Positions 35,107 to 64,000 of a DNA stretch of 64,000 bases are shown here, piece after piece; position 1 is the first letter of the stretch, and every line of letters begins with the position of its first letter. The DNA comes from an uncultured Chloroflexia bacterium (GTDB lineage: Bacteria; Chloroflexota; Chloroflexia; QHBQ01; JADMIH01). The position numbers and the translations under genes are program-made. The stretch is from NCBI GenBank assembly GCA_963797095.1, contig CAWCNY010000003.1, positions 512,001 through 576,000 of the forward strand. The letters are read 5' to 3'. The notes below the pieces were generated by a model, which worked only from the letters and a program-made list of their open reading frames with translations, made no database searches and was not told the DNA's origin.

Positions 35107-35158
35107 AAGATTGCACCGCCGGGACGTGGCATTAAAGTAGAGAGGATCAACCCAAGAA

Positions 35159-38626: not shown

Positions 38627-38911
38627 GACAGAAGCCAGGCCAAAGATCCCGTACCCAATACTCCCCTAGAAAGCTGAATCAAACCATATCAAGAAGGACT
38701 GTAAGCTATAGCTTATCAGTTCCCGGTCGGGTTAAGGGAAGTTCGCGGTCTGCAATATGAGTTCTGTATAGATCGTAAGATATCGCGGTTGCGTTATTCT
38801 TATCGTGTTAAAGAAGTGCTCATATAATGATAGAGGTAAAGGTTCCCATCACACTCTTTTGGCCTGGGTTGGAATTCCCTGCCCGGGCAAATTAGGTCCA
38901 GGAGGCTGGTA

Positions 38912-42246: not shown

Positions 42247-42259
42247 GAAAGGAACAGGA

Positions 42260-43399: not shown

Positions 43400-43435
43400 C
43401 TAGCCCATCTCAGTTACCCAAAGAGGTAGTAAGAA

Positions 43436-46433: not shown

Positions 46434-46454
46434 CAAGAGGTAGGAAGATCGTTT

Positions 46455-47279: not shown

Positions 47280-47682
47280 CATCTGAGCAGCTAAACGGAA
47301 TCCTCCTCTTACATGCAGAGCACATAACTAGAGCCTTCTTGTTATTTCGACAAGACATGATTCTGACCTAGCCCCGAGAATCTAGTCCAGCACCAATGAG
47401 AGTTCCCGGTAAAATAGCACAATCAGAAAGGAGAACTCAAGATGAAAAGGGGCCAGTTTGTTTCTGATAATGCTCTATCTTTGCAGATTTTAGAACTGGC
47501 CCGTCAAGCGGCGAATAGGTCTGTTTCTGCTAATGTAAAAGGGAGCCATTCGATGAAATCTTGACAGTCAAAAAGGGAGCCACTTAGCTCTCTCTTTGCT
47601 ATCGTTGGGACAAGGCAAAGATGTTGCCTTTCGGTTACTCGGCTAGACCGTTAGACCGCAAACGATACGATAGCAAAGAGAG

Positions 47683-49377
47683 GTGGAGATGATTACCGTG
47701 GAACAACACGAAGCCATCCGCCGCGCCTTCTACCTCGAACACAAGAGTGTCAGGCAGATCGCACGAGAACAAAGGCACTCCCGCAAGACTGTTGACAAAG
47801 CCATTGCCCAAGCCCAAGCCCAGGCTCAGGACCCATCCCAGTCCCAATTCTACCAACCGTACCCTTACCCAACTTACCGGCGCACCAAACCTAGACCCGC
47901 TCCGGTGTTCGGCTCTTTCCAGACCCGTGTCGACGAACTCCTACAGCAAAACGACCGTCTCCCACGCAAACAACGCTACACCGCTCGCAAGATCTTTGAA
48001 CTTTTGGTCAAGGAAGGCTACCAGGGTAGCAAGTCTCGCGTGCGATTGCACGTGAGCAGATATCGCAAAGCCCATCACGCACCACCCCTGTTCATACCAC
48101 TAGAGTTCGAGCCTGGGAAGGACGCCCAGGTTGACTGGGGTGAAGCTGTTGCCGTCATCGGTGGCGAGCGCCAAACCGTGCAGTTGTTCATCATGCGTCT
48201 GAACTACTCAAGGCGATCCTTCGTGATGGCCTACCCCTCGCAGAAACAAGAAGCCTTCTTTGCCGGTCATGTGGCAGCTTTCCAGCACTTTGGTGGAGTT
48301 CCCCAACGTATCAGCTACGACAACCTGGCCTCGGCGGTGGATCCGGTTGCCTCTTTCAGCTCGGTGCGCCTCCTGATCGAAGGACGAGTACGACGAGAGC
48401 AGAGAGCATTCGTAGCCTTTCGTAGTCATTACCTGTTCGAGAGCCACTTCTGCACGCCTGGACAAGGGCATGAGAAGGGAGGTGTTGAACACAGCGTAGG
48501 GTTTAGCCGCCGCAACTTCCTGGTACCTATCCCAGATGTGGCCTCATTTGAAGCATTGAACATCTTTCTTCTGAGCGAGTGCCTGCGAGATGATCAGCGC
48601 CGGGTTGCGCGCCAACCCACCACCATCAAAGAAGCCTGGGAGCAGGAGCTACCTCATCTGCGTCCTCTACCTTCCTACCAATATGAATGTTGCGTGACGA
48701 GCACGGCACATCTCACTCCATACAGCCAGGTGATCTTTGAGACCAATCGCTACTCGGTGCCCGTCGAGAGAGCAAGGCGAGAAGTGATCGTCAAGGCTTA
48801 CCCTTTCCATGTGGACATATTCGACCCCAATCCCAACCCCAATCCCAACGATGGCCAGCCACGTAATCAATCGCATGACCAGCCCGGCCGCTCCGGCCTA
48901 CCAGGATTGCTTGCCCGTCATCCCCGCTGCTACGAGCGAGAGCAGGATATCTTCGAGCCACTGCATTACCTGCCTTTGCTCGCTCAGCGGCCAGGGGCAT
49001 TCGATTATGCCAAACCATTGCGCCGGTGGCGAGCCAAATGGCCACCTACATATGAGAAGGCGTTGGAACTGTTACGGGAGAAGTGGCCGGAAGGCAGAGG
49101 AGTGAAGGAGTTTGTCCGCATCTTGCAACTTCATCAGGATTATCCCGCTGTGCTTGTGGAGCGAGCAGTTGGGCAGGCTCTTTCGTATGGGTGTGTTCAT
49201 TTTGATGGAGTTACCCATTGTTTGAGGCAACTCACCACGCCTGAAACAGAGCTGACCATGCTTGCAGGTCTTGATCTGGTAGGGCTGGCCGATCACCCAC
49301 ACCTGCAAGCCATTGGCAAAATCGGCAGCCAGCCCATCGACTTACGTCGTTATGAGCAACTGCTTCAAGGAGGATGA
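47683..49377 (+). CDS. istA: IS21 transposase IstA
   Basis: AQVDWG, FGGVPQRISYDN, EKGGVE, NRYSVP, HYLPLLAQRPGAF. Confidence 0.95.
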   Translation: MEMITVEQHEAIRRAFYLEHKSVRQIAREQRHSRKTVDKAIAQAQAQAQDPSQSQFYQPYPYPTYRRTKPRPAPVFGSFQTRVDELLQQNDRLPRKQRYTARKIFELLVKEGYQGSKSRVRLHVSRYRKAHHAPPLFIPLEFEPGKDAQVDWGEAVAVIGGERQTVQLFIMRLNYSRRSFVMAYPSQKQEAFFAGHVAAFQHFGGVPQRISYDNLASAVDPVASFSSVRLLIEGRVRREQRAFVAFRSHYLFESHFCTPGQGHEKGGVEHSVGFSRRNFLVPIPDVASFEALNIFLLSECLRDDQRRVARQPTTIKEAWEQELPHLRPLPSYQYECCVTSTAHLTPYSQVIFETNRYSVPVERARREVIVKAYPFHVDIFDPNPNPNPNDGQPRNQSHDQPGRSGLPGLLARHPRCYEREQDIFEPLHYLPLLAQRPGAFDYAKPLRRWRAKWPPTYEKALELLREKWPEGRGVKEFVRILQLHQDYPAVLVERAVGQALSYGCVHFDGVTHCLRQLTTPETELTMLAGLDLVGLADHPHLQAIGKIGSQPIDLRRYEQLLQGG

Positions 49378-49378
49378 A

Positions 49379-50440
49379 TTGGAGAAAGAGAGGGAGAGAA
49401 CGGAGAGGACGCAGACCGTGAACACGGCGAATACGAACACGGTAAAGCCAGCAAGGGCAGCAAGGGCGACAGAACATCACATGTTGCTGGAAAGCTATCT
49501 ACGCCAGTTACGATTGCCCAGCTTCGTGCAACACTACCAGAAGTTGGCTCAAGATGCCGCACAGACCAACCTCAGCTATGAACGTTTTCTGTTAGCTCTG
49601 GCTGAAGGAGAGGTAGGCCAACGAGAAGTGCATCGAGTGGAACGCTCTATCGCCTCCGCCAAATTCCCGGTGCTCAAAGAGCTTGCTGACTTCGATTTCA
49701 GTGTCGTGCAGGGTTTAGCCAAGACGAGGGTACTTGAACTGGCTCAGGGTGGGTACATTCAGAGGGCAGAGCCGATCCTTTTGGTTGGCAATCCAGGGCT
49801 TGGCAAGACCCATATTGCCACAAGTCTTGCCCTTGCGGCTTGCCGTCAGGGCCATCATGTGCGCTTCTACAACGTAGCAGGCTTAATCAATGATATGATC
49901 CAGGCACAACAGGAGCTGCGATTGTCCCGTTTCATGACACAGATGTGCAAGCAGCAGGTGATTGTGCTGGACGAGCTAGGCTTCATACCATTTACAGCGG
50001 CGGGTGCGCAGTTGCTCTTCCAGTTCTGTTCGACCCTTTACGAGAGAGTGGCAATCATCATAACTACGAACCTGCGATTTGGAGATTGGAACAGTGTGTT
50101 AGGAGATGAGCGAATGACGGCTGCACTTTTGGACCGGCTCACGCACAAAGCACACATTCTGGAGTTTGTTGGAGAGTCGTTTCGTTTTCGCCAGCGTCTT
50201 CAACAGCAACAGGTGCAGGGGCAGGGGCAGGGGCGAAGTGAAAGAACAGGTGATGGTGCGAACGGGAATTTCGGGTACGGTTCTATTCAGAGTCTGGAGA
50301 GCCGAGAGATGGAAGGAGGGGAGGAAGACGAGGGGGCAGAAGCGGGGGAGATCGGGGAGAGCGGGGAGAGAAACGGGGAGAGCGGGGAGACAGAGGAAGC
50401 AGAACCGGCGCAAATGGCAAGCATCGCTGATCGGCCTTAG
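49379..50440 (+). CDS. istB: IS21 helper AAA+ ATPase IstB with acidic low-complexity tail
   Basis: GNPGLGKT, VLDELGF, ITTNL, ALLDRLTH, GESFR; TTG start after AGGAGG (ORF track starts at 49313). Confidence 0.95.
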   Translation: MEKERERTERTQTVNTANTNTVKPARAARATEHHMLLESYLRQLRLPSFVQHYQKLAQDAAQTNLSYERFLLALAEGEVGQREVHRVERSIASAKFPVLKELADFDFSVVQGLAKTRVLELAQGGYIQRAEPILLVGNPGLGKTHIATSLALAACRQGHHVRFYNVAGLINDMIQAQQELRLSRFMTQMCKQQVIVLDELGFIPFTAAGAQLLFQFCSTLYERVAIIITTNLRFGDWNSVLGDERMTAALLDRLTHKAHILEFVGESFRFRQRLQQQQVQGQGQGRSERTGDGANGNFGYGSIQSLESREMEGGEEDEGAEAGEIGESGERNGESGETEEAEPAQMASIADRP

Positions 50441-50481
50441 TTTTTTCGCAAAATTGACCTCAAAATGGCCGAAATTAAGTC

Positions 50482-50796
50482 ATGACCTCTAACTCCAGCT
50501 CTAACCCAAGCGCACTCCCAGCTAGCGAACCTGCCGTCGAACCGCCCTCGAAGGTGGTAACGACCTGCCGGGGCTACACACGAACCCTCCACGCTCAACT
50601 CGTTTCGTTCCGTTGCGAGTGGTGCAGCGAGGAGCGAGAGGTGTGGCAGTATCCAGGGGCAGCTCCGCGTTACTGCGATGGTTGCCGAAGGGAAGCCCAA
50701 AGGGCGATGAACACGGCGCGCCAGCGGGAGAAGCGCAAGCGAGACACTAGCCCCTACGGATGGCGACCACGGGTAGGACGGCCTCGCAAGCCTTGA
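50482..50796 (+). CDS. Small CxxC..CxxC zinc-binding protein with C-terminal AT-hook-like motif (IS21 passenger)
   Basis: CEWC-16 aa-CDGC, basic helix, GRPRKP; co-oriented 41 bp after istB. Confidence 0.65.
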   Translation: MTSNSSSNPSALPASEPAVEPPSKVVTTCRGYTRTLHAQLVSFRCEWCSEEREVWQYPGAAPRYCDGCRREAQRAMNTARQREKRKRDTSPYGWRPRVGRPRKP

Positions 50797-50907
50797 AATC
50801 GGTGAACTGAGCGTATCCTAATTGGCACACCGAGCCTTATTGCGTCTGGGTAAATGAGCAGGATGGTCCCTGTGCCTACTCTTCCGATGCCAAATGGCTA
50901 TAACCAT

Positions 50908-51444
50908 TCACTGTGATATCTCTAGCTTCAATATCACCGGATCCGAGGGATCGCCGTCTATGTGGGCATACCAAATCTTGACTTGTAGCCCCTCTTTCAT
51001 TGGCCCCCCAAGTGTACTTACATGGTGAAAGCCAAGGCTCTCGCTGTATTCGGAGTAACTAAACTGGACCCCTTGCACCCTAAAGCTCTCGGCCTTGCCA
51101 CTGGCCGTACTGGTTAGGTCTATTACTTGCCCCTCAGCAACCTGTGCCTGATTAGTGGCGAGCAAATCGCTGCCAGTATGATATGCGGAAAGCGTCGACG
51201 CAAAGAGGAAGATCGCAACGCACAAACCAGCACAGATCAGGGTTACAGATCCAGATATCCTTATGGCACTAGGTACCTTGGGTATGCGGCTGCGATTGAC
51301 CAATATTCCAACACCGACGAACGCAACCGCCAGAGGGATTATTACAACCCACCATGCAAACGATTGTTGCGAAGCGTCAAAGACCGTTCGATAAGCCACG
51401 ACCGTGCTGCGGTCCATGTTGTTCCAAATGTCGACTAAAGTCAT
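50908..51444 (-). CDS. Hypothetical two-TM membrane protein (IS21 passenger)
   Basis: 178-aa ORF with two TMs then an OB-like VAEGQV..ESFRVQGVQFSY..GLQVKIWY region; lies inside the IS21 ends. Confidence 0.7.
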   Translation of the reverse strand: MTLVDIWNNMDRSTVVAYRTVFDASQQSFAWWVVIIPLAVAFVGVGILVNRSRIPKVPSAIRISGSVTLICAGLCVAIFLFASTLSAYHTGSDLLATNQAQVAEGQVIDLTSTASGKAESFRVQGVQFSYSEYSESLGFHHVSTLGGPMKEGLQVKIWYAHIDGDPSDPVILKLEISQ

Positions 51445-51582
51445 GTCCGTGATGTCCCCACTAGACTTGCGATTTCCGTGTGGCCCCCTTTTCGATTATC
51501 AAATGGCTCCCTTTTTAATTATCAATATTTTCGTCGGGGAGGAGAAGTGGCTCCCTTTTTGGTTATCAAATGGCTCCCTTTT

Positions 51583-53079
51583 CTATTGACAAAAACATAG
51601 GTCATACAGATGCTCCTGAGCAACACCCGCCACAAACTGCTTATGCAGCCAATCCAGCAAGTGCCGCCGATGCACTCGCTGCATTTCTCGGCGCGCATCC
51701 CCGATGGTCACACGAACATGTTCAGTCTCGGTCGTGGTGGCCTGCAAACGGGCACGCTCCTCGTCCAAGAGCAGGTACGCCGCCAACACCAACGTCCAGA
51801 ACCGCTCGATAGCCGGGGCGCTCATCACTTGGTAGTGGTCAAGCCCCATCAACTCCTTGCAGTCGGCAAACAGCACCTCGATGTCCCAGCGTGCCGCTAC
51901 ATATTGCAGCAACTGCTCCACACTTGCCCCCAAGTCACTCGATGCCCAGTATCTGGTCTCGGACACAGGAGCACCCAGGCTGTGCCTCACTACCAGCACC
52001 TGGCACTTGTACAGCTTACGCACCATTGTGGTAATCGCATGCGCGTACACAGTGCTCACCTCCCCTTTGGCATCGGCATCGCGACCGCAACCGAGTTCGC
52101 TTCTGGGCCAGCGTACCAGCACGTAATCGGCCTCGCTCAAGCCCGCCACATATTCCGGCAGAGGCTGCCAACACCAGTCTGCAGCACTGGCGGCACTGGC
52201 GGCACTGGCGGCACTGGCGGCACTGGCGGCACTGGCGGCACTGGCGGCACTGGCGGCACTGGCGGCACTGGCGGCACTCGTACCGCCGACAAGCTGCTCT
52301 ACTCGGATGGAGCGATTGGCTTTCAGCCCACTGGTAATATGGAAGGCTCGCTGCCGAGCCGCCTTCCATACCGCCTTGCACCCAAACCAACTGTCCACCA
52401 GCACATGGGTGTCGGTCCCTTCCACCGGCTCGAAACTCTCAATCTGCTCCACCAGCAGGTCAACCTTGCTCTTGAAGGGCACACCCTCTCGCTCACAGAC
52501 CTCTCGCTGCCGATACAGACAAGGAGCCTGGGGACAGCACCTATCCAACGTAGGCAACACATACAGGGTGGTCAACATGTTGTGCCCTTGCACCGGGTGC
52601 CCCACCGTCGAGGAGAAGTGGCGGCCTATCCCAGCCATCTTGCGGCCTTTGGGCTTGTGCATGGTGGAGTCGTCTCCAATCAAGTAACCGGTCACAGAGG
52701 TTACACGAGCAGGAAGGCGACCCTTACGACCCCGACCGGTGTAGCGTCGGTGGTGACTACGCAAGGTGGCACGCTCTTGGGCTACCTGGGGGGCAAGTTG
52801 TGCTCGGAAACGGGCACACCAGGCAGCCACAACAGCCTGCCCTTCCCAAGGAGCGCGGCTCAAGAAGCGGCTCAGGCCACAGTAAGCGCGAGCGCGGGTG
52901 CGTACTCCGCCTCCGCACACAGCACGGTGCAGTCCACACAGGGTACGAGCTTCCATGCACAACAGCAAGGCCAGCAGTACGGTAACAAAGTACTGGAATT
53001 GAGGCTTGCTGAAGCAGTGACGGAAGGTCTGGGCGAAGTAGCGCACGCTCCCATCGGCGCATATAATGGGGGTAGGCAT
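51583..53079 (-). CDS. IS701-like DDE transposase containing an (SAA)x11 insertion; C-terminus altered by the IS21 insertion
   Basis: LIGDDS, VLVDSWF, RWDIEVLFADCKELMGL; GGAGG RBS before MPTPII. Confidence 0.88.
   Translation of the reverse strand: MPTPIICADGSVRYFAQTFRHCFSKPQFQYFVTVLLALLLCMEARTLCGLHRAVCGGGVRTRARAYCGLSRFLSRAPWEGQAVVAAWCARFRAQLAPQVAQERATLRSHHRRYTGRGRKGRLPARVTSVTGYLIGDDSTMHKPKGRKMAGIGRHFSSTVGHPVQGHNMLTTLYVLPTLDRCCPQAPCLYRQREVCEREGVPFKSKVDLLVEQIESFEPVEGTDTHVLVDSWFGCKAVWKAARQRAFHITSGLKANRSIRVEQLVGGTSAASAASAASAASAASAASAASAASAASAASAADWCWQPLPEYVAGLSEADYVLVRWPRSELGCGRDADAKGEVSTVYAHAITTMVRKLYKCQVLVVRHSLGAPVSETRYWASSDLGASVEQLLQYVAARWDIEVLFADCKELMGLDHYQVMSAPAIERFWTLVLAAYLLLDEERARLQATTTETEHVRVTIGDARREMQRVHRRHLLDWLHKQFVAGVAQEHLYDLCFCQ
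52181..52279. repeat. 9-bp tandem repeat (GGCGGCACT) x about 11, in frame
   Basis: Read directly; encodes SAA repeats on the minus strand. Confidence 0.95.
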
Positions 53080-53234
53080 AGTGGTCCTCCTCGGGTAAGG
53101 ATTGGTGTTCGCAACCCTCTTATACCCGATAGGCCCTATGCCTTCAATCATTCACTTTGAAATGTGCAAAGATAGAGTGATAATGTAAAAGGGGTGTACT
53201 GCGCCCTTGGTGTTGGACACAAATGGGGCTTAGG

Positions 53235-54240
53235 TTAGTCAATAGCCCCGACCGGCTGGGCTGACCGGCTAGCGGCGAGTGCGTCCTGGCTCCCCACGCC
53301 ACCACCCAGATATACCTGGTTGCAGCTCTGGTTGCGCTGAACCCACTGCGCCTCGAACTCAGCAGGGGTCATGTACCCCAGCGATGAGTGTATCCGCTTG
53401 TGCTGGTACACCTCGTCCAGGAACCGCCCGATCTGCTGGTAAGCATCATTGTAGTCGATGTATTCCGATAAATCTACCTCCTCTTCCTTGATGGTTCGAA
53501 TCACCCGTTCCGCGTACCCGTTCTGCCACGCCTGCCCCACCTCAGCCATGCTGATGGCAACTCCCGCTCCCACCAGCATCTGCACGTAGCCACCCGCCGC
53601 GTACTGTACTCCCTGGTCGGAGTGGTGGATTTGAGGAGTGCCAACGAGCAGTGCCCGCCGCAGTGCCGTTTCAGTAAGGTCAGCATCCAGCCACCGCGAG
53701 AGGTGCCACCCACGGATTGAGCGAGTGAACACATCCATGACCACAGCCAAGTAGACAAACTCGCTCCCGAGGCGCACGTAGGTGATGTCCCCGACCCAAA
53801 GCTGCTCTGGTCGCACCACCGCCAGCCCCTCTACCAGGTTGGGGTAGCGTGGGAACGAGTGGGCACTATTGGTCGTGCGCTTCTTACGGCGAGGGATGCG
53901 TCCTTGCAGGCCCATCTCACGCATCAACCGCCGCACTCGCTTGTGGTTGGCCCGAAGCTCGTACCCACCCGCTTCCTTGCTTCTGCGTAGCTGATGGGTG
54001 ATGCGCCTGTATCCATAGGTAGACCAGCGGTCAGCAACCGCTTGGATGGCCTCTTTTACCTCTTGGTCTGGCGCACTCTGGACCCGAGACGTGGTCTGAG
54101 CTTGAGTGTAATGGTAGTAGCTGCTGCGAGGGTAGTCCAGCAGACGGCAAACCAGCTGTACCGGGTAGCTCTCCTCTTGAACGAGCTTCACGACTGCCCG
54201 CCTTTTCTGCTCAGCTCTGCATTCAAGATCGCAGACCCCT
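53235..54240 (-). CDS. IS3 OrfB (integrase core), expressed via -1 frameshift
   Basis: YGYRRI, WVGDITY, HHSDQGVQY, NGYAER..RTIKEE, RIHSSLGY; A-AAA-AAG slippery site at 54239-54245. Confidence 0.92.
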
Positions 54241-54517
54241 TTTTTAGGATTTCCATCTCCAGAGTCATGCGTCCAACCAGCCTCTCCAACTCGGCTATCC
54301 GTTCTGCTTGTGGGTCGGCCACTCGTCCGGAAGGGCCGTTCTCGAAGAGCTTGGGGGCACTTGCCACGAAATCGGCTTTCCATCTGGACAGCAATTCGGG
54401 CTTGATGGAGTACTCGCGAGAGGCCTGAGCTACACTCTTGGCTCCTGTGAGGATTTCCAGCACTACCTGCGCTTTGAACTCGGCGCTGAAACTCCGCCGA
54501 TTTTGCATCTGAGGCAT
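54188..54517 (-). CDS. IS3 OrfA (HTH)
   Basis: RRSFSAEFKAQVVLE, LLSRWK, IAELERLVG..EILKK; AAGGAG RBS. Confidence 0.92.
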   Translation of the reverse strand: MPQMQNRRSFSAEFKAQVVLEILTGAKSVAQASREYSIKPELLSRWKADFVASAPKLFENGPSGRVADPQAERIAELERLVGRMTLEMEILKKGSAILNAELSRKGGQS

Positions 54518-55563: not shown

Positions 55564-57039
55564 TATTGGTGACAAGTTAAGGTAATCACAGGGATGTCAA
55601 ACAGCAGATTGAGCATGAGAAGCACGACAACGACGTTTCTGCTTGAGCAGGTCAAGGTCCTTGGCCTTGCGAGCCAGGTAGTCTACCACATCAAGCTCCA
55701 GGGTAGGGTCTCGCCCTTGCTCTCGCAGACGTTGACAGGCTTGCGTGTAATGGTACAATGCCCGGAACACCATCTCCAACGATATTGCCTTGAATGGCTG
55801 CCTTACCGCCTCAGCCACTGCGTCGGTGAGGTCCACCAGCACCGCATACAGTATCCAGGTGGCCCATACCTGCACCTGCACGGCGTTGGACGCTCCACAC
55901 CAGAAGTAGGCCAGTCCCAGCAGACGCTTGACGATGTTGAAGGCATCTTCCATGCGCCACCGCTCAGCATACAACGCCGCCACCTGCTCAGCCGGCAATC
56001 TGTGGGGGTCGGTCACGTTGGTCAGGTAGCGGTACCACTTGCCTTTCACCGATATTTCCACTACCCGCATCGGGTGAGCACAGCGTGTGGTGCCCTGACC
56101 CAACACCACTTCATAGTCGTGTATGCTGTCCGTCTGTTGCAGCACCCGCACCACTTGTATGGCCGCATTCGCCTTGAGAGGGGTCAGCATACTCACTCCT
56201 CGCTCGGTGAGGCGGTCGAAGAAGGTGTAGTTGACAAAGCCCATGTCAAACAAGGCCAACAGCCCACTCTCCAACGTCTCGATGATCCCGTCCCAGAAGA
56301 GTTGGTCGTGCGCCGCACTATCCGGTTCATAAATGATGTGCACAGGCAAGCGAGAACACAGGTCGAGCACCCCCGCGATGCGCCCACCCAACAGGGCCGA
56401 GTGCTTGTCAGGGAGCTCTTGCAGCAGACCCACTTTACGCAGCAAAGTGTCAAGGGTGGACCCATCGAAAGCCACCACACCCGTGTAATGCCCCTTGGCC
56501 CAGGTGAGCACGCTTGGCAAGGGGCGCACTCGAGCGTGCCAGCGGTCATGCATGAGGGGCAGCACATCCAGGAGCACCTGCCTGAACAGCGAGGCGGGCA
56601 TAGTCCTCAGACGCTGGTTTACAGCTTGTTGCGACACCGACACAGGAGGCACCCACAGTACTCCATCTTCATGCAGTACCCTCACGGCTTCTCGCACCGA
56701 GCCGATCTGACGCCAGATCATGCTCAACGCGAAGGCCATCATCACCGGCAAAGTCAGGATGCGGTGGCGCAAGCCCATGACCTGATAGGCAGCTATCTGG
56801 GCATAGGTAGCAGGGTGGATAAGTTCAGTCAGCCTCTGCTCCACTGCAGCGGCAGGCGGTCCCACAGTAGGACGCTTGGAGCGGTCCCGCTGTATAGCGC
56901 GAGTATGGCGGACGCTGCTGTTCTTTGGTTTGGAAGGGTTGGAAGATGTGCTCATGCATGATTCTACCCAACCTCTCGACCCAAATCCAGCAGCAAAACA
57001 GCTTGACATCATGCACATGACCTTAACTTGTCACCAATA
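55564..57039 (-). mobile_element. IS4-family element, 9-bp TSD ACCTAAGGC
   Basis: 19-bp perfect IRs TATTGGTGACAAGTTAAGG; TSD at 55555-55563 and 57040-57048. Confidence 0.95.
55597..56955 (-). CDS. IS4-family transposase
   Basis: AFDGSTL, LFDMGF, YLTN, YREK-type YAERWRMEDAFNIVK (ORF track starts at 57018). Confidence 0.92.
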   Translation of the reverse strand: MSTSSNPSKPKNSSVRHTRAIQRDRSKRPTVGPPAAAVEQRLTELIHPATYAQIAAYQVMGLRHRILTLPVMMAFALSMIWRQIGSVREAVRVLHEDGVLWVPPVSVSQQAVNQRLRTMPASLFRQVLLDVLPLMHDRWHARVRPLPSVLTWAKGHYTGVVAFDGSTLDTLLRKVGLLQELPDKHSALLGGRIAGVLDLCSRLPVHIIYEPDSAAHDQLFWDGIIETLESGLLALFDMGFVNYTFFDRLTERGVSMLTPLKANAAIQVVRVLQQTDSIHDYEVVLGQGTTRCAHPMRVVEISVKGKWYRYLTNVTDPHRLPAEQVAALYAERWRMEDAFNIVKRLLGLAYFWCGASNAVQVQVWATWILYAVLVDLTDAVAEAVRQPFKAISLEMVFRALYHYTQACQRLREQGRDPTLELDVVDYLARKAKDLDLLKQKRRCRASHAQSAV

Positions 57040-57574
57040 ACCTAAGGCCAATGGCAAACAAAGGCCGATCGGCATCCAAACTCTCAAAGACCGCATCGCG
57101 CAGGCAGTTATCAAGAACGCACTGGAACCAAGTTGGGAGGCCCAATTCGAGCCGAACAGCTATGGCTTTCGTCCGGGCCGCAATTGTCATGATGCCATCG
57201 TGCAATGCTGGAACTGGTTTAAGGGCGCAAACGGACACAGCTTTGTGCTCGACGCCGATATCCGGGGTGCGTTCGACAATATCAGTCAGGAATATATCCT
57301 CGACGCCATTGGCCAAACGCCGGGACGCGAGTGGATAGAAGCATGGCTGAAGGCAGGCTATGTAGAGGCCGAGATCTTCCACGCCACTGAGAGTGGTACC
57401 TCACAAGGCTCTGTCGTCTCACCATTACTCGCCAACATTGCCTTGGACGGTATGGAACGCTGGCTTGGTCAATGGACTAACCAGCGAACTTACACCAACA
57501 AGCGCGGCAAACAGGTGGGATGTGTACATAAACAGGCTAATCCACGCTACGGTTACATCCGTTTTGCGGACGAC

Positions 57575-60081
57575 GTGCGCCACATAACCAAGATAATGGA
57601 TTCCTTTCGCAGAAAGGGGAGGTACGGAAGACAAGACCTCCGGGTCAACAGCTTACCTGGAAGCGAAAGCTGAAGGGAACAGTAGCATGCTGCTGAAGCG
57701 GAAGATACTTGAAGATGCTTAGGGTATCGTTCTGCAAGACCCGCGTGATATGGTGAGAGCCAAACTGCCCAAACCTTAGTCTCCAGCGATGCAAGCGAAT
57801 ATTCTCCGACCATAGCATCTATTGGCGGAGCCATTGTGATAGGGCGGTTAAGTCGTCGCCGCCTGAACCTTTCGCACAATGGGCGGTCAGGAACGACCTG
57901 ACTCAAGGAGACGGAACAGGCACCTACGTCACGCTCGATACGTCCATAACCTTGGGAATGTGGGATCGCCTACAGGGCGCGAGCCCCATGGCGACGGAGC
58001 CACCATATTACTCCGAGGACGGGAAAGCCGTCTACATGGCAACATAGCAACATAGCAACATAGCAACATGGCAATGCCTTGCAAAGAAGATAAGTTGCCA
58101 ATGGGGAAGGGTGGCAGGTGTTGTGAGACCCAATCAGGGAGGTACGCGAGATGCGAAACGCCGAAACTGTGCTGGGGATCATCCATGAACGCGGCAAGAA
58201 GGGCTTGCCATTGGAGGACGTGTACCGGCAACTGTTCAACCCAGACTTGTATCTACTCGCTTATGGGCATATCTACCGCAATAACGGGGCTATGACACCT
58301 GGCGTAACAGACGAAACTGTGGATGGGATGTCGCTGGCCAAGATCGAAGCCATCATCGGTGCACTACGACAGGAACGATATCGATGGACGCCAGTACGAC
58401 GCGTGTACATCGCCAAGAGAAACTCGACCAAAAGGCGTGGGCTAGGAATCCCTTCTTGGTCGGATAAGCTGTTGCAAGAAGTGATACGCCTTATCCTACA
58501 GGCATATTACGAACCGCAATTCAGCCCGGCCTCACACGGCTTTCGCCCTCAACGTGGGTGTCACACCGCGCTAAGCGAGATCCAACATAAGTGGGTAGGC
58601 ACAAAATGGTGGGTGGAAGGCGATATCAGAGCGTGCTTCGACACTCTGGACCACACAGTCCTGATATCAATCCTACGCGAGAAGATCTTCGACAATCGCT
58701 TCTTACGCTTGATCGAACGCCTCCTGCAAGCCGGATACCTGGAAGAATGGCGTTATCACTGCACCCTGAGTGGAAGCCCACAAGGTGCCGTGCTCAGCCC
58801 CGTTCTTTCGAACATCTACATGGACAAGTTGGACCAGTTTGTCGAGAAGACACTGCTTCCCAGGTACACGTGCGGAAACCGTCGTAGACTTAATCCTGAA
58901 TGGCAACGGCGACAACAGCTTGCTCGGCAATTGAAGGAACATGGTGACAAGAAAGAGGCCTGCAAAATGCGTCGTCTGATGCAGCAGGTCCCCTCCTTGG
59001 ACACACACGACCCCAACTACCGACGCCTGCGTTACTGTCGTTACGCCGATGATTGGCTACTCGGTTTCAGCGGCCCACGAGAAGAAGCCCAGGAAATCAA
59101 GTCTGCAATCCGGGACTTCTTACGAGAGGATCTCAAGTTGGAACTCTCTGAGGAAAAGACGCTGATTACCCATGCGCGGACCAAAGCTGCGCATTTCCTG
59201 GGCTATGATATCGTGGTGCTCAATAACGACCACAAGCTGGATCGCCGAGGTCACCGCAGCATCAACGGCGGGATCGGACTGAAAGTACCAGCAGAGGTTG
59301 TGAAAGTGAAATGCAAACGCTATCTGCGCCACGCCAAACCGATCCACCGACCGGAACTTGAACACGATGCTGTCTTCAGTATCGTGGCACAATACCAGCA
59401 GGAGTACCGGGGTCTCGTGGAATACTATCGACTGGCCTTCAACCTTCACAAACTCAACCAACTGAAATGGCTAATGGAACGCTCCCTGGCACAGACACTG
59501 GCCTCAAAACTCAAGATCAGTGTCCGATCTATCTACAAGCGATACCACACCTTAGTACGGACAGATCAGGGAACACGTGCAATCCTCGAAGTCAGGGTAG
59601 AGCGTGATGAGGGCGATCGTGATAAGGGCGATAAAGGAAGAAAACCGTTGATAGCGCGGTGGGGCGGTATTTCACTCGCACGCAACTCCAAGGCAATACT
59701 GAACGACGCGCCCCTACAAATCAGCGGACCGAGAGCGGAACTCGAACGACGCCTCTTGGCACAAGCTTGTGAGCTTTGTGGTTCACGAGAAAACATCGAG
59801 GTGCATCATGTACGAGCACTCAAAGATCTACGGACCAAAGGACGCGCAGAACCGCCTTTCTGGATGCAGGTGATGGCAGCTCGCAAGCGCAAGACGCTGG
59901 TGGTCTGTCGCGAGTGCCACGATAGCATTCATGCTGGTCGCAACACTCAAACTGCTGCCGTGAAAGCCGCGAGAAGGAAAACACTGGAGAGCCGGGTACT
60001 CCGAAAGGCGTAAGCCCGGTTCGGGGAGAGGCGGACAGAAAAGAGCTGCGCAAGCAGCACCTCGCTGGCCGCCCACTCCAC
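57575..60081 (+). mobile_element. Group II intron (inner; ML-class/IIA-like), apparently complete; forms a twintron
   Basis: 5' GTGCG; domain V GAGCCGGGTACTCCGAAAGGCGTAAGCCCGGTTC near 59989; ends CCCACTCCAC; precise removal restores RFADD|FIIT. Confidence 0.95.
58151..60013 (+). CDS. Inner intron-encoded RT/maturase/HNH endonuclease (LtrA-like)
   Basis: GAMTPG, LGIPSWSDKLLQE, SHGFRP, EGDIRACFD, PQGAVLSP, RYADD, FLGY, CELC..EVHH..CRECH. Confidence 0.95.
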   Translation: MRNAETVLGIIHERGKKGLPLEDVYRQLFNPDLYLLAYGHIYRNNGAMTPGVTDETVDGMSLAKIEAIIGALRQERYRWTPVRRVYIAKRNSTKRRGLGIPSWSDKLLQEVIRLILQAYYEPQFSPASHGFRPQRGCHTALSEIQHKWVGTKWWVEGDIRACFDTLDHTVLISILREKIFDNRFLRLIERLLQAGYLEEWRYHCTLSGSPQGAVLSPVLSNIYMDKLDQFVEKTLLPRYTCGNRRRLNPEWQRRQQLARQLKEHGDKKEACKMRRLMQQVPSLDTHDPNYRRLRYCRYADDWLLGFSGPREEAQEIKSAIRDFLREDLKLELSEEKTLITHARTKAAHFLGYDIVVLNNDHKLDRRGHRSINGGIGLKVPAEVVKVKCKRYLRHAKPIHRPELEHDAVFSIVAQYQQEYRGLVEYYRLAFNLHKLNQLKWLMERSLAQTLASKLKISVRSIYKRYHTLVRTDQGTRAILEVRVERDEGDRDKGDKGRKPLIARWGGISLARNSKAILNDAPLQISGPRAELERRLLAQACELCGSRENIEVHHVRALKDLRTKGRAEPPFWMQVMAARKRKTLVVCRECHDSIHAGRNTQTAAVKAARRKTLESRVLRKA

Positions 60082-61606
60082 TTCATCATAACAGCAGCCA
60101 CGAGGGAGGAAATCGAGGCTATTCAACCTCATGTGGTAGCCTGGCTGGCCGAGCGCGGACTCGAACTCAACACCGAGAAAACCCATATCCGCAACATTGC
60201 AGATGGTTTCGACTTCTTGGGTTTCAACATCCGTCGCTACGGCACGAAATGCCTAATCAAGCCCCAGAAGGAAAAGGTGCAGACCAAACTGCGTGAAATC
60301 AAGCAGTGGCTGGTCACGCATCCGAACGTTGGTCCCGACGACGTGATTGACGTGCTAAACCCGATTCTGAGGGGTTGGGCGAACTACTACAAGCATGGGG
60401 TGAGCAAGAAGATGTTCGCCACCTTCAGCCACCGGTTAGTGTTACTACTTATCCGATGGGCGAGACGGCGACACCCGGGTAAGGGTCCACGGTGGGTACT
60501 TCCGCGTTACTTCACGAGAGTAGGCGGGAACAACTGGGTCTTCTACGCCAAGACAAAGAACCGGCACGGTAAGATGACGAAGACCTATCTGTATCGGATA
60601 GGGCAGACGCCAATTACTCGCCACATCAAAGTCAAAGGCGCAGCATCCCCAGACGACCCAACGCTGGGCGAATACTGGGCGGCACGGCAGACAAGATATG
60701 GCAAAAGCTATTTTGCTGTGGGGTCAAAGCTATACCGGGTAGCCGCAAAGCAGCACTGGCGATGTCCCCTGTGCCGAATGCACTTGTTCAATGAAGAGCG
60801 TATTCATATTCACCATGAGCAATCGGTAGCAGACGGTGGAACAGATGAGGAGGAAAACCTCAGCATCTTACACGAAGTCTGCCACCGCGCAACATTTGGT
60901 AGAAGACCCGCAGTAAAGTCGGTGGAAGCCTGAGCCGGATGATCGGCGACGGTCTTGTCCGGTTCTGTGAGGAGGGAGGCGGGGCGACCCGCTCTCCCTT
61001 ACTCGATAAGTACCTGCTCTGCCTTGAACTGACCGACCCTGGTTTTGACCATACCGTGTTCAGCGAGTTTCGCACTCGCCTGTTGGATCACAACGCTGAG
61101 CGCCAACTGTTCGACACCATGCTTGCACTCGCTCAAGACCGGGGTCTGCTCAAAGCCGGTGGCCGTCAGCGCAGCGACTTAACTCATGTCCTAAGTGCTG
61201 CACGCACCCTCAACCGGCTGGAATGTGTTACCGAAACCCTACGTCACGCCCTCAATGTGCTAGCGACCTCCGTCCCGCAGTGGCTACGAGCACACACTAC
61301 ACCAGAGTGGGTGGAGCGCTATGGCTTACGTGCCAGTGAATTTCGGCTGCCCAAAGGCGATGCCAAACGGCTGGCGTGGGTTGAGCAAGTTGGGCGCGAT
61401 GGGATGGCCTTGCTCGATGCCATCTACGCAGCAGACCCGGCAGACCCGGCAGACCCGGCAAATGGTCCAACTCCAGCCTCTTTGCGCGAGGTGCGGGGTC
61501 TTGAGTAGGTGCAGATACTGCGCCGGGTTTGGATCCAGAAGTTCTGGATGAACCAGGATCAATTGCAATGGCGCGACAACGACAACACCCCACCAAGCGG
61601 CACTTA

Positions 61607-62893
61607 GGAGCCTTCCGCAGATAAGGTGATCAAAGTAGCTGAGGCTTGATAGTGTAGTTCCATTCCCCGTGGAAGGCATCTTTGAACAGATTGAGGGCAG
61701 CCACTTGCTCATCAGTGACCTTGATCCCTGTCGGATATGCATGGCTGTCCTTGAGCGCCCTCACCACTAACCCCTCTTGGGTGGTAGTATGCGAGATCAG
61801 TTCCAACACCACTTCCATAGACGTGAGCGGGGTGGCCCGCCAATTTATTGATATGTACGAAAACACTCGATGCTCTATCTTGTTCCATTTGCTGGTAGCA
61901 GGGGGATAATGCGCCACCGTGATGGCCAGTTGTTCTTCATTGGCCAGTGCCTGTAGCTTTTGCTTCCACAGGCGGTTTCTCACCCCATTGGAGCCTCCTC
62001 CATCAGCGGTGATCAGCAGTTCCTTTTTGCCTGGATAGAGGGTTTTGCCCCACTTCTGCCACCACCTGCGGATACTCTCCACCGCAAACTCAGCCGTATC
62101 ATGGTCAATACCCACATTCACAAACCCCACGTTCACAAACCCCACGTTATGCACCAGGTCATATATCCCGTAGGGGATGGCCTTGCCATCGGCCAGGGAA
62201 ACAAAGTCATACACCGATACCACCCTCTCTTCCCCTTGAGCCTGCCATTCCCGTCCGTTGTTCCTGAACTGGCCTATCAACTCCTTCTTCTTGCAGTCAA
62301 CGGAGATGATAGGAGCGCCTTTGTGTTCAAACTCTTTGCACCGAGCGTTGATGTGAGTAAATTGCTCATCCCGGTCAGGGTGCGATTGGCCTTCGATATT
62401 CTTCTTGTTGACGCGCAGAGAAAATCTCTGCTCGTGCAGCAATTCGGCCAGTGCTGACTTCTTGATGTGATGCCCTTTGCCTTCAAGGGCTTGCACCAGG
62501 TGTGCCAACGATTTGGTGGTCCATCGTACAAGGCTCATCGGGTCACCCTTGGGTTCCAATTCCCTCTCCAGATCGGGGAGCAGGGTGGGATCGGTCTGTG
62601 CAAGCTTTTTCATGCCCCCACCAGGCTTGCGGATGCGTTCTCCTGGTTGATAGTTGTCCCCTGCCTCCCGTTCTTTCAGACCCCGCTTGACCGTGTTGAG
62701 GGAGACCCCTGCCTCCCGAGCTACTGTGCTGGTGCTTCCTCTGCGTTGAGCCTCGGCTGCCAGGTACTGTCTCCACTGCTTCTCATTTAGCAGTGTCCGA
62801 AGCTGTTGGTATTCTTGTTCGGTCGAGAGCTTTTCCATACTCTCTATCTTCGCATATCTCCCTCTCTATGTCAACTAATTCTCGGAAGGCTCC
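61607..62893 (-). mobile_element. ISAzo13-family element, 3-bp TSD TTA
   Basis: IRs GGAGCCTTCCG / CGGAAGGCTCC; removal restores PSGT|YINSPYD of the IS1182 transposase. Confidence 0.92.
61630..62838 (-). CDS. ISAzo13 transposase
   Basis: GDPMSLVRWTTKS, ISVDCKKKE, ITADGGGSNG, HYPPATSKWNKIEHR, FHGEWNY. Confidence 0.95.
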   Translation of the reverse strand: MEKLSTEQEYQQLRTLLNEKQWRQYLAAEAQRRGSTSTVAREAGVSLNTVKRGLKEREAGDNYQPGERIRKPGGGMKKLAQTDPTLLPDLERELEPKGDPMSLVRWTTKSLAHLVQALEGKGHHIKKSALAELLHEQRFSLRVNKKNIEGQSHPDRDEQFTHINARCKEFEHKGAPIISVDCKKKELIGQFRNNGREWQAQGEERVVSVYDFVSLADGKAIPYGIYDLVHNVGFVNVGFVNVGIDHDTAEFAVESIRRWWQKWGKTLYPGKKELLITADGGGSNGVRNRLWKQKLQALANEEQLAITVAHYPPATSKWNKIEHRVFSYISINWRATPLTSMEVVLELISHTTTQEGLVVRALKDSHAYPTGIKVTDEQVAALNLFKDAFHGEWNYTIKPQLL

Positions 62894-64000
62894 TTACATC
62901 AACTCGCCTTATGACATTGATATACGCTACGCTCACAAAGGCTCCATCACCTGGACCGGCTTCAAGGTGCATCTGACCGAGACTTGTGACGATGAAGGAC
63001 CAAACTTGATTACCAACGTTGAAACCACTTCGGCCTCAGTAGCGGATGACGCTGTAACCGGGTCAATTCATGCTTCTTTGGCTGAGCACCAGTTGCTACC
63101 CGACAAGCATGTCGCCGACACGGGGTTCGTCAATTCGAAGCTGTTCGTCGAGAGTACACAAGAATACGGCATCACCCGGATCGGTCCGATGCGCTCTGAC
63201 AACAATTGGCAGGCTAAAGAAGGAGGCGGTTTCTCGGCACAGGACTTTGTGATTGATTGGGCGCAACAACGAGCCATCTGTCCACAAGGCCAAGTCAGCA
63301 GCAGTTGGACCAAAGCACTAGACCGTGTGAAGAACGAGGTCATCAAGATCAAGTTTGGCAAGCACGAATGTGGGGTCTGTCCGAGCGTAGCAAGATGCAC
63401 GCGATCAGACCCGCCGCGACGAAGCATCAGTATCAGACCGCAAGCGCAGCACGAGGCATTGGTGGCTGGACGGCGACATGAACAAAGTGAGGAATTCAAG
63501 CAAGAATATGCGCGACGGGCGGGGGTAGAAGGGACAATTGCGCAAGGGGTGCGGTCGTGCGGGCTGCGTGGTTCGCGCTACTATGGATTGGCAAAGAACC
63601 ATCTACAACACCTGATGATAGCGGCGGGAATAAACCTGATAAGGATTGTACGCTGGCTCATGGGCGAGGAGAAGGCCAAAACTCCTGTGTCTGCGTTCGC
63701 ACGTTTGTATCAGCAGGCCGCATGATCACTATTCGCCACCAATATCAAAGTGCGGATGAACCCCTTTCCCCTTTTTCGTTATCAAATGGCTCCCTTTTCT
63801 ATTGACAAAATCACCAGTTCAGCGAAGAGCAGATAATTGGGATCCTGCGGGAAGCCGAGGCAGGTCAGAAAGTGGCCGATGTCTGCCGCAAGTACGGAGT
63901 AAGCCAGAGCACCTTCCAGAGGTGGCGGCCCATCCTCTGTAAGGGCACTGCGTACCGCCAGACAGTAACCAAGGATCGCCTTTCCCAAGTCCTGGGCCTC

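Follow-up and report, generated by a model that had tools for sequence, protein, structure and literature searches.

An 18.5-kb pile of mobile DNA in the genome of a soil bacterium consists of one insertion sequence (IS) that has been invaded repeatedly by other ISs and by self-splicing introns. We put the probability at roughly 0.8 that this is a genuine nest, built serially through a filter for dead DNA together with true targeting by both of its retroelements. Positions given below are those of the window, the whole 64,000-nucleotide stretch analysed. A first-pass annotation had proposed ten elements, and all ten were found in place, their families assigned by Pfam and NCBIfam matches and their ends set independently through other copies in the genome. 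The five target-site duplications (TSDs) it named are exact (6, 8, 6, 9, and 3 bp), and removal of each TSD-flanked insert, or of the inner intron, restores the host frame or sequence.

Layers of the nest

The outermost element is IS407-like, of the IS3 family. Its left end (47364-47458, plus strand) carries a terminal repeat that begins TGACCT and the orfA start codon (ATG at 47442); orfA continues at 63814-63916 (plus strand), and the element extends past the window to 65904, with the right terminal repeat at 65867-65904. The two parts of orfA are separated by an IS21-family shell flanked by the exact 6-bp duplication CCAGTT (47453-47458 and 63814-63819). With the shell removed, orfA aligns to the IS407-like element of a relative, G015 (80% identity, 183 nt), and the joint is gap-free. 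The proposed splitting of orfA is upheld; the element exceeds the window and holds an eleventh piece. This piece (63917-65010, minus strand, 1094 nt; 63917-64000 in the window) is 100% identical to 490509-491602 of contig C2, and is a 3'-truncated gene with weak similarity to Mutator/IS256-like sequences. It replaces about 150 nt of orfA/orfB, after which come orfB and the element end at 65904. No TSD was found around the IS407-like element, so it did not arrive by clean insertion.

The left end of the shell is itself in two pieces: nt 1-14 (47459-47472, plus strand), and the continuation to nt 22/23 (53178-53194, plus strand). Between them lies an IS701-like element, whose exact 8-bp TSD, TGATAATG, occupies 47465-47472, the last 8 nt of the first piece, and 53178-53185. 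Without this insert the shell left end is 22 nt long, and mismatches the corresponding end of the intact IS21 described below at one position. The shell right end (63762-63813, plus strand, about 46-52 nt) shows 95.6-97.6% identity to the right ends of five full IS21 copies, and is the sole IS21 end in the genome that is not part of a full copy. Short IS21-end derivatives were found nowhere else in the genome, which fits a shell that was once full-length.

The IS701-like element, its transposase on the minus strand, comprises a 49-nt end piece (47473-47521) and a main part (51598-53177; transposase frame 51583-53151; NF033540 139 bits, under the cut-off of 150). The end piece matches three other copies at 100%. 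These pieces are separated by an intact IS21-family element of 4076 bp (47522-51597, plus strand), flanked by the exact 6-bp TSD TAGGTC (47516-47521, the last 6 nt of the end piece, and 51598-51603). Once the IS21 is removed, the IS701-like element aligns over its full length with all three other copies, from which it departs by 1-2 mismatches, one extra T, and a 45-nt repeat difference; a 9-nt tandem repeat lies inside it at 52163-52297. All four IS701-like copies occupy AT-rich sites, with TSDs of 6-8 bp. The intact IS21 encodes istA (47683-49377), istB (within 49313-50440), and an extra ORF (50908-51444, minus strand), and matches NF033546 (277.8 bits, cut-off 160) and NF038214 (265.6 bits, cut-off 200). 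Four further copies are present in the genome at 99.5-99.8% identity, three of them likewise with exact 6-bp TSDs.

Near the right tip of the shell lies an IS1182-family element, also in two parts. The first (61008-61606, plus strand) is the 3' exon side of the transposase gene and begins within the DUF772 domain, the match starting at profile position 39; the second (62894-63761, plus strand) holds the C-terminal half, with the stop at 63725. Profile NF033551 is matched at positions 87-230 and again at 246-488 (180.6 bits), and DDE_Tnp_1_6 at 94.4 bits. The right end is approximate, set only where similarity to the IS21 right end starts, and the left junction with the shell is lost, so that a TSD cannot verify this insertion. 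The two parts are separated by an ISAzo13-family element of 1287 bp (61607-62893, minus strand) with an intact 402-codon transposase (61630-62838; NF033519 530.8 bits, cut-off 200) and three further copies (99.6-99.9% identity). Its TSD, TTA, is exact over 3 bp (61604-61606 and 62894-62896). Removal restores the IS1182 frame over the joint as proposed, although the frame carries an in-frame TAG elsewhere (61506-61508).

Two introns and their target sites

The outer group II intron, on the plus strand, survives in three parts: nt 28 onward, which holds the 5' part of the ribozyme and the beginning of the reverse transcriptase (RT) ORF (54597-55563); the RT ORF as far as its FADD codons, read from the translation, with an RVT_1 match (57040-57574); and the remainder of the RT together with the maturase (GIIM) and HNH domains and domains V/VI (60082-61007; domains V/VI 60930-61007, RF00029 47.3 bits). 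RVT_N is matched in the ORF at 55178-55585 (101 bits), and the first part is 99.6% identical to the copy on contig C2. An IS4-family element of 1476 bp separates the first two parts (55564-57039, minus strand; NF033592 161.5 bits, cut-off 115), with the exact 9-bp TSD ACCTAAGGC at 55555-55563 and 57040-57048. Minus IS4, the intron differs from the C2 copy by 3 mismatches and 1 gap in 4935 nt; fully peeled, it reads as one 595-codon frame. The sole other IS4 copy, on contig C1, has the TSD CCCTTAGGC, and in both copies the target is palindromic, of the CCTNAGG type. What IS4 prefers here is a sequence, and not mobile DNA as such.

Two copies of the outer intron, on contigs C2 and C4, retain the 5' exon junction or both junctions; they lie at the identical codon of IS1182-family transposase genes, and the window copy has its 3' junction in common with them. 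The host proteins have diverged to 41% amino-acid identity, and the site is the same. These alignments support the view that the outer intron targets one site in IS1182-family transposase genes. The 3' junction and the paralogous copies likewise point to an intron strike on the window's IS1182, although there the 5' exon and left end are missing.

The inner group II intron (57575-60081, plus strand, 2507 nt) starts GTGCG, ends in domains V/VI (59987-60081; RF00029 54.5 bits, gathering score 40), and encodes an intact 620-codon RT/maturase/HNH protein (58151-60013; Pfam RVT_1, Intron_maturas2, and HNH). Over these 2507 nt, a single mismatch separates it from its counterpart in the C2 twintron. 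When it is removed, the RT frame of the outer intron rejoins, with FADD followed directly by FII. In every full copy examined, this lineage has inserted immediately downstream of the (Y/F)ADD codons in the RT of a different intron. The window, C2, and a relative (G013) each show this, as does a 72-74% related intron on contig C3 at about 115.8 kb. The lineage also follows YADD codons in six cyanobacterial genomes. Among genomic-contig loci, the post-ADD site is found at six of seven with IEP identity of at least 70%, and at none of 29 with identity of at most 67%. This distribution supports targeting of the RT YADD codons of other introns by the inner-intron lineage.

In nine of nine introns, the same alignment column holds a hexamer that could base-pair with the final six nucleotides of the exon; A-T covariation is seen in two of the three introns whose exon ends in T. 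Chance alone would supply about one such hexamer per intron, and the introns are interrelated, so this candidate EBS1 is weak evidence.

For the deepest chain proposed, from the IS407-like element through shell and IS1182 to intron within intron, the last step is borne out and the step into IS1182 rests on the 3' junction and the paralogous copies. That some elements target others is supported for both introns, but not for the transposase-driven ISs.

Deletion, probable order of events, and rival readings

An IS3-family element of 1402 bp (53195-54596, minus strand), which has TG...CA ends and one frame of 447 codons (53235-54578; NF033516 274.3 bits, cut-off 160), stands at the left end of the shell; two further genomic copies are 98.8% and 100% identical. 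Comparison of its left and right flanks revealed no TSD. Each flank comes from a different host, the left being the shell at nt 22/23 and the right the outer intron at nt 28. Full outer-intron copies on C2 and C4 begin GTGCG, 27 nt upstream of this joint. The element is therefore where it had been placed, but as the marker of a deletion joint, not as a simple insertion. The outer intron has lost its first 27 nt, the IS1182 its left end and 5' exon, and the shell its entire interior. Layers with TSDs peel cleanly; the deletion blocks full reconstruction, so that "reconstructable" was an overstatement. One-ended or intramolecular transposition, or recombination between two IS3 copies, could have produced the deletion, which would be the last event on that side.

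Containment suggests the following order. The IS407-like element would have landed between two convergent genes, and an IS21-family element would then have split its orfA. The dead IS21 would have taken the IS701-like element near its left tip and the IS1182-family element near its right; a live IS21 would have invaded the IS701-like element in turn. The IS1182 transposase gene would have taken the site-specific outer intron, and the RT gene of that intron the second. IS4 would later have entered the outer intron, and ISAzo13 the IS1182.

Seven inner elements have copies elsewhere in the genome at 98.8-100% identity, which argues that the nest was built in place from resident elements. It also makes it improbable that the nest arrived ready-made as a block, for example on a plasmid or island, even though the genome has no further copy of the shell variant, the IS1182, or the outermost IS407-like element. 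Ordinary chromosomal genes flank the locus directly, and no integrase or plasmid gene was seen within it. The left neighbour encodes a polysaccharide deacetylase, the right a NicO-like transporter. An assembly artefact, in which the order of pieces is a chimera of joined repeats, is slightly more improbable again. The inner elements are all multi-copy repeats of 1.3-5 kb, and the three public runs found contain only repeats, with no reads on unique flanks or junctions; no intermediate states of the nest were found among the relatives searched, all of them different species. However, full-length inserts are each flanked by an exact host duplication, and their removal restores the host; mis-joins within repeats would not yield this. 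Moreover, the assembly, of eight contigs, resolves five copies of a 4.1-kb repeat.

Serial insertion in place accords with the density of repeats. Across 11,746 windows of 18.5 kb the locus ranks top, with 86% repeated DNA (median 1.3%, 99th percentile 53%; 6.07% of the genome overall), and is the densest repeat region. The absence of mobile DNA to the left stands: positions 1-47521 contain no repeats, and blastx of this stretch against the genome's library of repeat ORFs gave no match. If insertion were uniform, ten or more of 165-293 repeat intervals (which include non-IS duplications) would fall in 18.5 kb with P of 2e-10 to 4e-8; with insertions restricted to about 12% permissive DNA, a crude Poisson estimate for ten hits gives P of about 0.01. 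Other copies of the nest elements adjoin repeated DNA in 5 of 14 cases (binomial P 0.001-0.02).

Might the ISs have been attracted, not merely tolerated? IS ends, transposase-bound, bent, or AT-rich, would then be hot targets. Three events crowd into the ~70 nt at the shell left tip (IS701-like at nt 14, IS3 at nt 22/23, and IS21, which sits 49 nt into the IS701-like end), and IS1182 lies about 50 nt from the right tip; the AT-rich sites of the IS701-like copies and the palindromic IS4 targets could be read likewise. Against this, non-repeated DNA makes up the immediate 60-nt flanks of the other IS21 copies (four of four) and of two of the three further IS701-like copies. Preferred targets resemble short motifs that occur anywhere, and no IS here was found solely inside other ISs. 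Attraction therefore seems unlikely, though less so than a block or a chimera.

Nests and twintrons in other genomes

Clusters of ISs inserted into one another are familiar from IS-rich bacterial genomes, as are nested transposons from plant genomes; such nests arise by serial insertion into inactive mobile DNA, and their layers can be read from TSDs. In principle the present nest is no different, but its depth is unusual for a bacterial chromosome, and it combines DNA transposons with two retroelements. Nested MULEs are the topic of PMC3903597.

As a review outlines them (PMC4424553, citing Dai and Zimmerly 2003), the group II introns that occur in nests in Methanosarcina acetivorans use others of their kind as site-specific homing targets, as here, and form arrays outside host genes; deletions balance these nests, which offer a perpetual homing site. 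The window nest adds eight transposase-driven ISs. Its inner intron encodes its own full RT/maturase/HNH protein, and homes to RT catalytic-motif codons.

Both twintrons and introns inserted in ISs occur in Thermosynechococcus elongatus (Mohr et al. 2010, PMC2882425); according to that paper, twintrons enlarge the non-essential DNA in which new targets are on offer. An IS breaks one intron ORF described there, much as IS4 breaks the outer intron. The inner introns of that species are ORF-less and lie between the first ATG of the host ORF and the second, whereas the window inner intron is autonomous and follows YADD. In T. elongatus the inner copies are identical and the outer ones diverged; between the window and C2, both layers are nearly identical, so the composite may have moved as a unit.

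RmInt1 of Sinorhizobium meliloti, with its homing site in ISRm2011-2, is likewise a bacterial group II intron with a natural target inside an IS. Studies of it (PMC1802570, PMC4181065) read homing to mobile DNA as a means of being tolerated. The IS hosting the outer intron belongs to the IS1182 family instead, with the target a DUF772-domain codon, and the intron keeps an HNH endonuclease domain, so its class probably differs from that of RmInt1.

The nest is real and its layers can be read one at a time, but structures of this kind are textbook material and not new: nested ISs, introns in ISs, and twintrons have all been published. The "safe-haven sink" of the first-pass annotation fits the repeat distribution, as a candidate mechanism. 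Insertion into dead mobile DNA would be free for the host, and so would persist and enlarge the harmless target; the retroelement RNAs, for their part, would recognise fixed sequences present only in other mobile elements.

Composition of the nest

The nest is an 18.5-kb pile of mobile DNA that begins at window position 47364 and runs past the window's end to 65904. Its element families were called by Pfam and NCBIfam scans of large reading frames between 47.3 and 64 kb, which found IS21 IstA and IstB; IS701-like, IS3, IS4, and ISAzo13 transposases; two group II intron reverse transcriptase (RT)/maturases; and an IS1182-family transposase in two halves. The ends of multi-copy elements were set without use of target-site duplications (TSDs), by BLAST of 47001-70000 against the whole genome (6.02 Mb in 8 contigs, the window being C3:512001-576000; 65 rows).

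IS21-family elements carry terminal inverted repeats with repeated internal sites, and generate a short TSD of fixed length. The intact IS21 in the nest (47522-51597; four other copies by BLAST) encodes IstA and the IstB helper ATPase in tandem (NF033546, 277.8 bits, cut-off 160; NF038214, 265.6 bits, cut-off 200), and has inverted repeats I2-I5, I14, and I15. A 6-bp TSD accompanies four of the five full copies and also the shell, the IS21-like copy that splits the outermost element; among the five full copies compared, the one at 43 kb on C3 is without a TSD. At 4.1 kb the element seems long for its family. It carries a third open reading frame (50908-51444, minus strand, 178 codons) with only a weak DUF4131 match, and the frame listed for istB is long, at 375 codons. 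The extra frame and length may represent passenger content.

The IS701-like element (47473-47521 and 51598-53177; three other copies by BLAST) has NF033540 as its best match, above the IS4 models. The score, in two stretches, is 139 bits and misses the family cut-off of 150, hence the name "IS701-like". The three other copies (C1:140424-142090, C2:259575-261241, and C2:915646-917312) differ from it in two respects: the nest copy is five units shorter in an in-frame tandem repeat of 9 nt (52163-52297), and one extra T in 51598-53177 joins the overlapping frames of the other copies (156 and 393 codons) into a single frame of 521 codons. The nest copy may be a fused variant; otherwise, the other copies depend on a frameshift or are defective.

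Four more IS families lie in the interior. The IS3 element (53195-54596; two other copies by BLAST) scores 274.3 bits on NF033516 (cut-off 160) and has TG...CA ends. TSDs in this family are 3-4 bp; one (GCT) flanks one of the three genomic copies, and the nest copy has none. The IS4 element (55564-57039; one other copy by BLAST) scores 161.5 bits on NF033592 (cut-off 115), with inverted repeat I1 and a 9-bp TSD in both copies. ISAzo13 (61607-62893; three other copies by BLAST) scores 530.8 bits on NF033519 (cut-off 200) and 416.8 bits on PF07592. The IS1182 pieces (61008-61606 and 62894 to about 63761) match NF033551 at positions 87-230 (75.6 bits) and 246-488 (176-181 bits), against a whole-protein cut-off of 270; DUF772 and DDE_Tnp_1_6 both exceed their Pfam cut-offs, and the N-terminal part and left end are deleted. 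Between IS3 and the IS1182 pieces lies a composite intron (54597-55563 and 57040-61007), for which BLAST finds one full copy on C2 and a 639-nt 5' fragment on C4; two group II domain V/VI motifs (59987-60081 and 60930-61007) are recognised by Rfam.

The outermost element extends past the window, to a right terminal repeat at 65867-65904. Its orfB (243.7 bits on NF033516, cut-off 160) and its TGACCT...AGGTCA ends point to the IS3 family; the subgroup name IS407, taken from the first-pass annotation, is putative, the subgroup being defined by ISfinder criteria. Both orfA and orfB are disrupted. A 1094-nt piece within the element (63917-65010), 100% identical to C2 490509-491602, takes the place of about 150 nt of orfA/orfB; it is a 3'-truncated gene with weak Mutator/IS256-like similarity. 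The element's ends show no TSD (ATTC versus GGAG), and it sits between the 3' ends of two convergent genes, for a polysaccharide deacetylase and a NicO-like transporter. In the stretch to the left (35,000-47,279), a family 2 glycosyltransferase gene (45354-46433) precedes the deacetylase gene (46455-47279), and beyond the nest is a gene of polysaccharide-synthesis/flippase type (locus L001, 4874-6415). Should these genes, the frames scanned here, be part of a cluster for cell-surface polysaccharide, the nest would lie inside it or at its edge.

Peeling the layers, and a deletion joint

The first-pass annotation had described ten elements nested five deep, reconstructable from their junctions. 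Its five TSDs are all exact (the right copy of CCAGTT is now placed, after correction, at 63814-63819), and every TSD-flanked insert, as well as the inner intron, can be cleanly peeled in silico, restoring host sequence or frame at each joint named here. Removing IS21 and one TAGGTC from the IS701-like element leaves a sequence that aligns end to end with all three other copies, with 1-2 mismatches, a 45-nt difference in the 9-nt tandem repeat, and the extra T. Taking the IS701-like element and one copy of TGATAATG out of the shell leaves 22 nt that match the intact IS21's left end at all but one position. The outer intron without IS4 and one copy of ACCTAAGGC differs from the C2 copy by 3 mismatches and 1 gap in 4935 nt. 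The inner intron starts with GTGCG at 57575, immediately after F-A-D-D codons, and past its end at 60081 the frame resumes with F-I-I; without IS4 and the inner intron, the outer intron contains a single 595-codon frame running from RVT_N to HNH. Removal of ISAzo13 and one TTA restores the IS1182 frame over the joint. Finally, when everything between the CCAGTT copies is removed from the IS407-like element, the start of orfA aligns, ungapped across the joint, with an IS407-like element from a relative's genome, G015 (80% identity over 183 nt). For each element, an exact flanking match has a chance probability of 4^-k, from 1.6e-2 for a 3-mer down to 4e-6 for a 9-mer; the TSD set as a whole therefore is not the product of chance.

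IS3 is the exception. It had been taken as a plain insertion into the left end of the shell, a view that fails at both flanks: there is no TSD, the left flank is shell nt 22/23, and the right flank is outer-intron nt 28. In the C2 and C4 copies of the intron, the GTGCG start lies 27 nt further upstream and is preceded by an IS1182-family 5' exon. Since its flanks come from two hosts, IS3 sits on a deletion joint. The deletion took the whole interior of the shell (no istA or istB remains), 27 nt of the intron, and, from IS1182, both the N-terminal exon and the left end. Each IS3 flank is compatible with a 3-bp duplication on its own side, so that either the shell end or the intron could have been the first entry site. 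The nest can be reconstructed only in part, because the IS3-associated deletion took away some of three layers. The IS1182 frame also contains an in-frame TAG at 61506-08.

The missing interior leaves two origins for the shell to be weighed. It may once have been a full-length IS21 that has since been deleted, or it may have arrived as a short, MITE-like derivative. A short IS21 derivative with the shell's ends was found nowhere else in the genome. The MITE-like origin is disfavoured in a genome without any short IS21 derivative, and for the same reason a once full-length IS21 is the preferred reading, though not a proven one.

Density, tolerance, public runs, and relatives

Self-BLAST assigns 6.07% of the genome to repeated DNA, in 293 merged intervals, of which the nest is the longest. 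Among 11,746 windows of 18.5 kb it ranks first, with 86.0% repeated; the next five reach 78, 71, 65, 56, and 56%, and the median is 1.3%. The other repeat-dense windows are mostly large segmental duplications and side-by-side elements. The 47 kb to the left of the nest show no insertions, as had been noted from sequence inspection: self-BLAST finds no repeats in 1-47521, and 1-47363 has no blastx match to a library of 656 frames from repeats. With exact TSDs, clean peeling, and the densest repeat window of the genome, the original observation is largely right and beyond chance.

Whether such density calls for elements that seek out other elements is a separate question. If 165-293 repeat intervals were spread uniformly, a crude estimate of the probability of at least ten in 18.5 kb is 2e-10 to 4e-8. 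Were insertions tolerated in only 12-20% of the genome, the equally crude estimate would rise to 0.012-0.0003. Nesting is a habit of this genome, since 5 of 14 other copies of the nest's elements adjoin repeated DNA on one side or both (within 60 nt), and at four more a flanking sequence resembles a repeat-library frame at the protein level. Tolerance alone could account for most of the nesting.

Three further repeated loci were noted in the same genome. Another IS21 copy (C5:167305-172698) is split by a 1.3-kb repeat with copies at C2:67597 and C2:1117840, forming a second, shallower nest; the interruption falls at the equivalent of window 51017-51020, inside the extra reading frame. At C3:77,361-89,425 lies a 12-kb mosaic of 6.1-, 2.6-, and 3.3-kb segments, 99.9-100% identical to segments on two other contigs (C1:574,438-587,729 and C5:163,087-166,395); it would represent either a multi-copy element or recent segmental duplications of large size. 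The sole other IS4 copy (C1:260,378-261,852) splits a frame about 78% identical in protein to sequence left of the C1 copy of IS3 (C1:434,849-435,270); the split frame may be a further unrecognised repeat family acting as host.

Three public soil-metagenome runs from one study contain 0.39, 0.27, and 0.11 of the sampled words. Over 45001-64000 their short contigs cover only repeated elements, with depth 0 on 45001-46902 and 62753-64000, and at their loose ends the sequence is that found beside other genomic copies. One contig of X1 jumps from 55554 to 57040, which is the IS4-free form as on C2, with only 24 letters on its shorter side. These contigs speak neither for nor against the assembly order. 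A DNA-level comparison with 30 relatives (one genome per species, mostly fragmented) found single elements at 63-92% identity; the genes flanking the nest were not found in these 30 at the DNA level. As to INTERMEDIATE states, no empty site or partial nest was present in the 30 relatives searched. The genomes G026 and G016, flagged as unpublished, support none of the claims made here.

Introns within introns

The outer intron (54597-61007) scores 47.3 bits on RF00029; its GTGCG start, lost from the window copy, is present in the C2 and C4 copies. Those copies interrupt an IS1182-family gene with only 41% amino-acid identity to that in the window, yet the site is the same: inside DUF772, with profile position 39 immediately after the intron in both hosts. 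Two other IS1182-family genes that align over the site are unoccupied, and differ in the 13 nt before it.

The inner intron (57575-60081) begins with GTGCG and scores 54.5 bits on RF00029 (gathering score 40). Its RVT_1, maturase, and HNH domains exceed their Pfam cut-offs, and its TIGR04416 score of 258 bits is under the equivalog cut-off of 300. Together the two form a twintron, one group II intron wholly within another with both sets of boundaries identifiable, and a second copy lies on C2. Only inside the outer intron is the inner intron known in this genome (window and C2), with 1 mismatch in 2507 nt; between the outer layers of the two copies there are 2 mismatches and a 9-nt indel over 2428 nt. 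With both layers near-identical between copies, rapid homing in succession and joint movement of the whole composite are indistinguishable.

Related introns occupy the same kind of site. At about 115.8 kb on C3, an intron 72-74% related to the inner one lies in another host intron, immediately after Y-A-D-D and before F-V-V, and in the relative G013 a 70% related intron again follows R-Y-A-D-D directly. A scan of one genome per species yielded 39 loci with relatives of the inner intron-encoded protein (IEP), 36 of them with enough upstream sequence to judge. In five of the 36, GTGYG is preceded by (Y/F)ADD codons at the expected distance, and a sixth (L038) has the same junction elsewhere in the locus. 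All six are cyanobacterial and belong to the seven loci whose IEP identity is at least 70%, the remaining one (L051) being a 3-kb contig; the junction is absent from all 29 loci at or below 67% identity. The 3' exon reads F/L-V/I-V/I by extrapolation in four of five loci, and in the fifth only after a 5-nt correction by eye. A hexamer able to pair with the last six exon nucleotides, GTCGTC or ATCGTC, occupies the same alignment column in all nine introns compared; ATCGTC occurs in two of the three introns with an exon ending in T. By chance alone, each intron should contain about one pairing hexamer, and the nine introns are related, so that the candidate hexamer is consistent with EBS1-IBS1 recognition and no proof of it.

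In a less likely reading, to which we assign a probability of about 0.3, the inner intron would belong to a lineage that obligately parasitises other group II introns. Its target would be the (Y/F)ADD codons of the host RT, which the host could not change without loss of mobility. Through G-U wobble, both Asp codons would be recognised by an exon-binding hexamer of the GUCGUC type, and synonymous changes would therefore give the host intron no protection. The lineage would span at least two phyla (six cyanobacterial genomes, together with this soil bacterium and its relative G013), and would help to seed nests such as this one. No description of a YADD-site homing lineage was found in the parts of the literature searched, a scope that has Dai and Zimmerly (2003) and the group II intron database outside it.

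Side observations broaden the picture of intron nesting. In L038, a Tolypothrix brevis MAG contig, an ADD | GTGCGCC junction at about 4616 falls inside a stretch matching the inner-intron IEP (308 residues over 2058 nt); a member of the lineage may here have invaded the YADD site of its own kind. A second twintron family comprises C3:115,000-119,400 (L014), with an rve-type transposase frame within 250 nt downstream, and C1:492,589-495,763, a 5'-truncated copy without about the first 360 nt of the inner intron and the 5' half of its host. A third type (C1:28,800-33,700; L015) immediately follows an IS3-type HTH_21/rve frame; here an intron with its own RT divides the host RT at NCBIfam profile position 136/137, a position other than YADD.

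Nested introns have precedents. Methanosarcina acetivorans is reported to carry up to five nested introns, which arise as introns home again and again to specific sites in other introns, and which deletions trim (PMC4424553); twintrons are described as enlarging non-essential regions and so providing new targets, and an intron ORF interrupted by an IS is also on record (Mohr et al., PMC2882425). RmInt1 homes to ISRm2011-2 (PMC1802570, PMC4181065). With nested introns, twintrons, and IS-homing introns all published, the earlier proposal of a safe-haven sink, built in part by elements that target other elements, amounts to established biology, of which the nest is a rich new example. That proposal is right in kind: targeting is proven for the two introns, and plausible for the insertion sequences.

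Current ideas on IS or intron biology are unchanged by the nest. The locus is a clean worked example of accretion, by which dead mobile DNA grows in a bacterial chromosome. About ten events can be put in partial order by their exact TSDs, and the trimming of such nests is illustrated by one IS-associated deletion. For annotation, eleven gene fragments resolve into pieces of six insertion sequences and two introns, and are not separate pseudogenes. The parasites also form a hierarchy, with one intron lodged in a transposase gene and another in the RT active-site codons of that intron. If YADD-site specialisation is indeed undescribed, it would provide a testable instance of a host element unable to escape its parasite by mutating the target.
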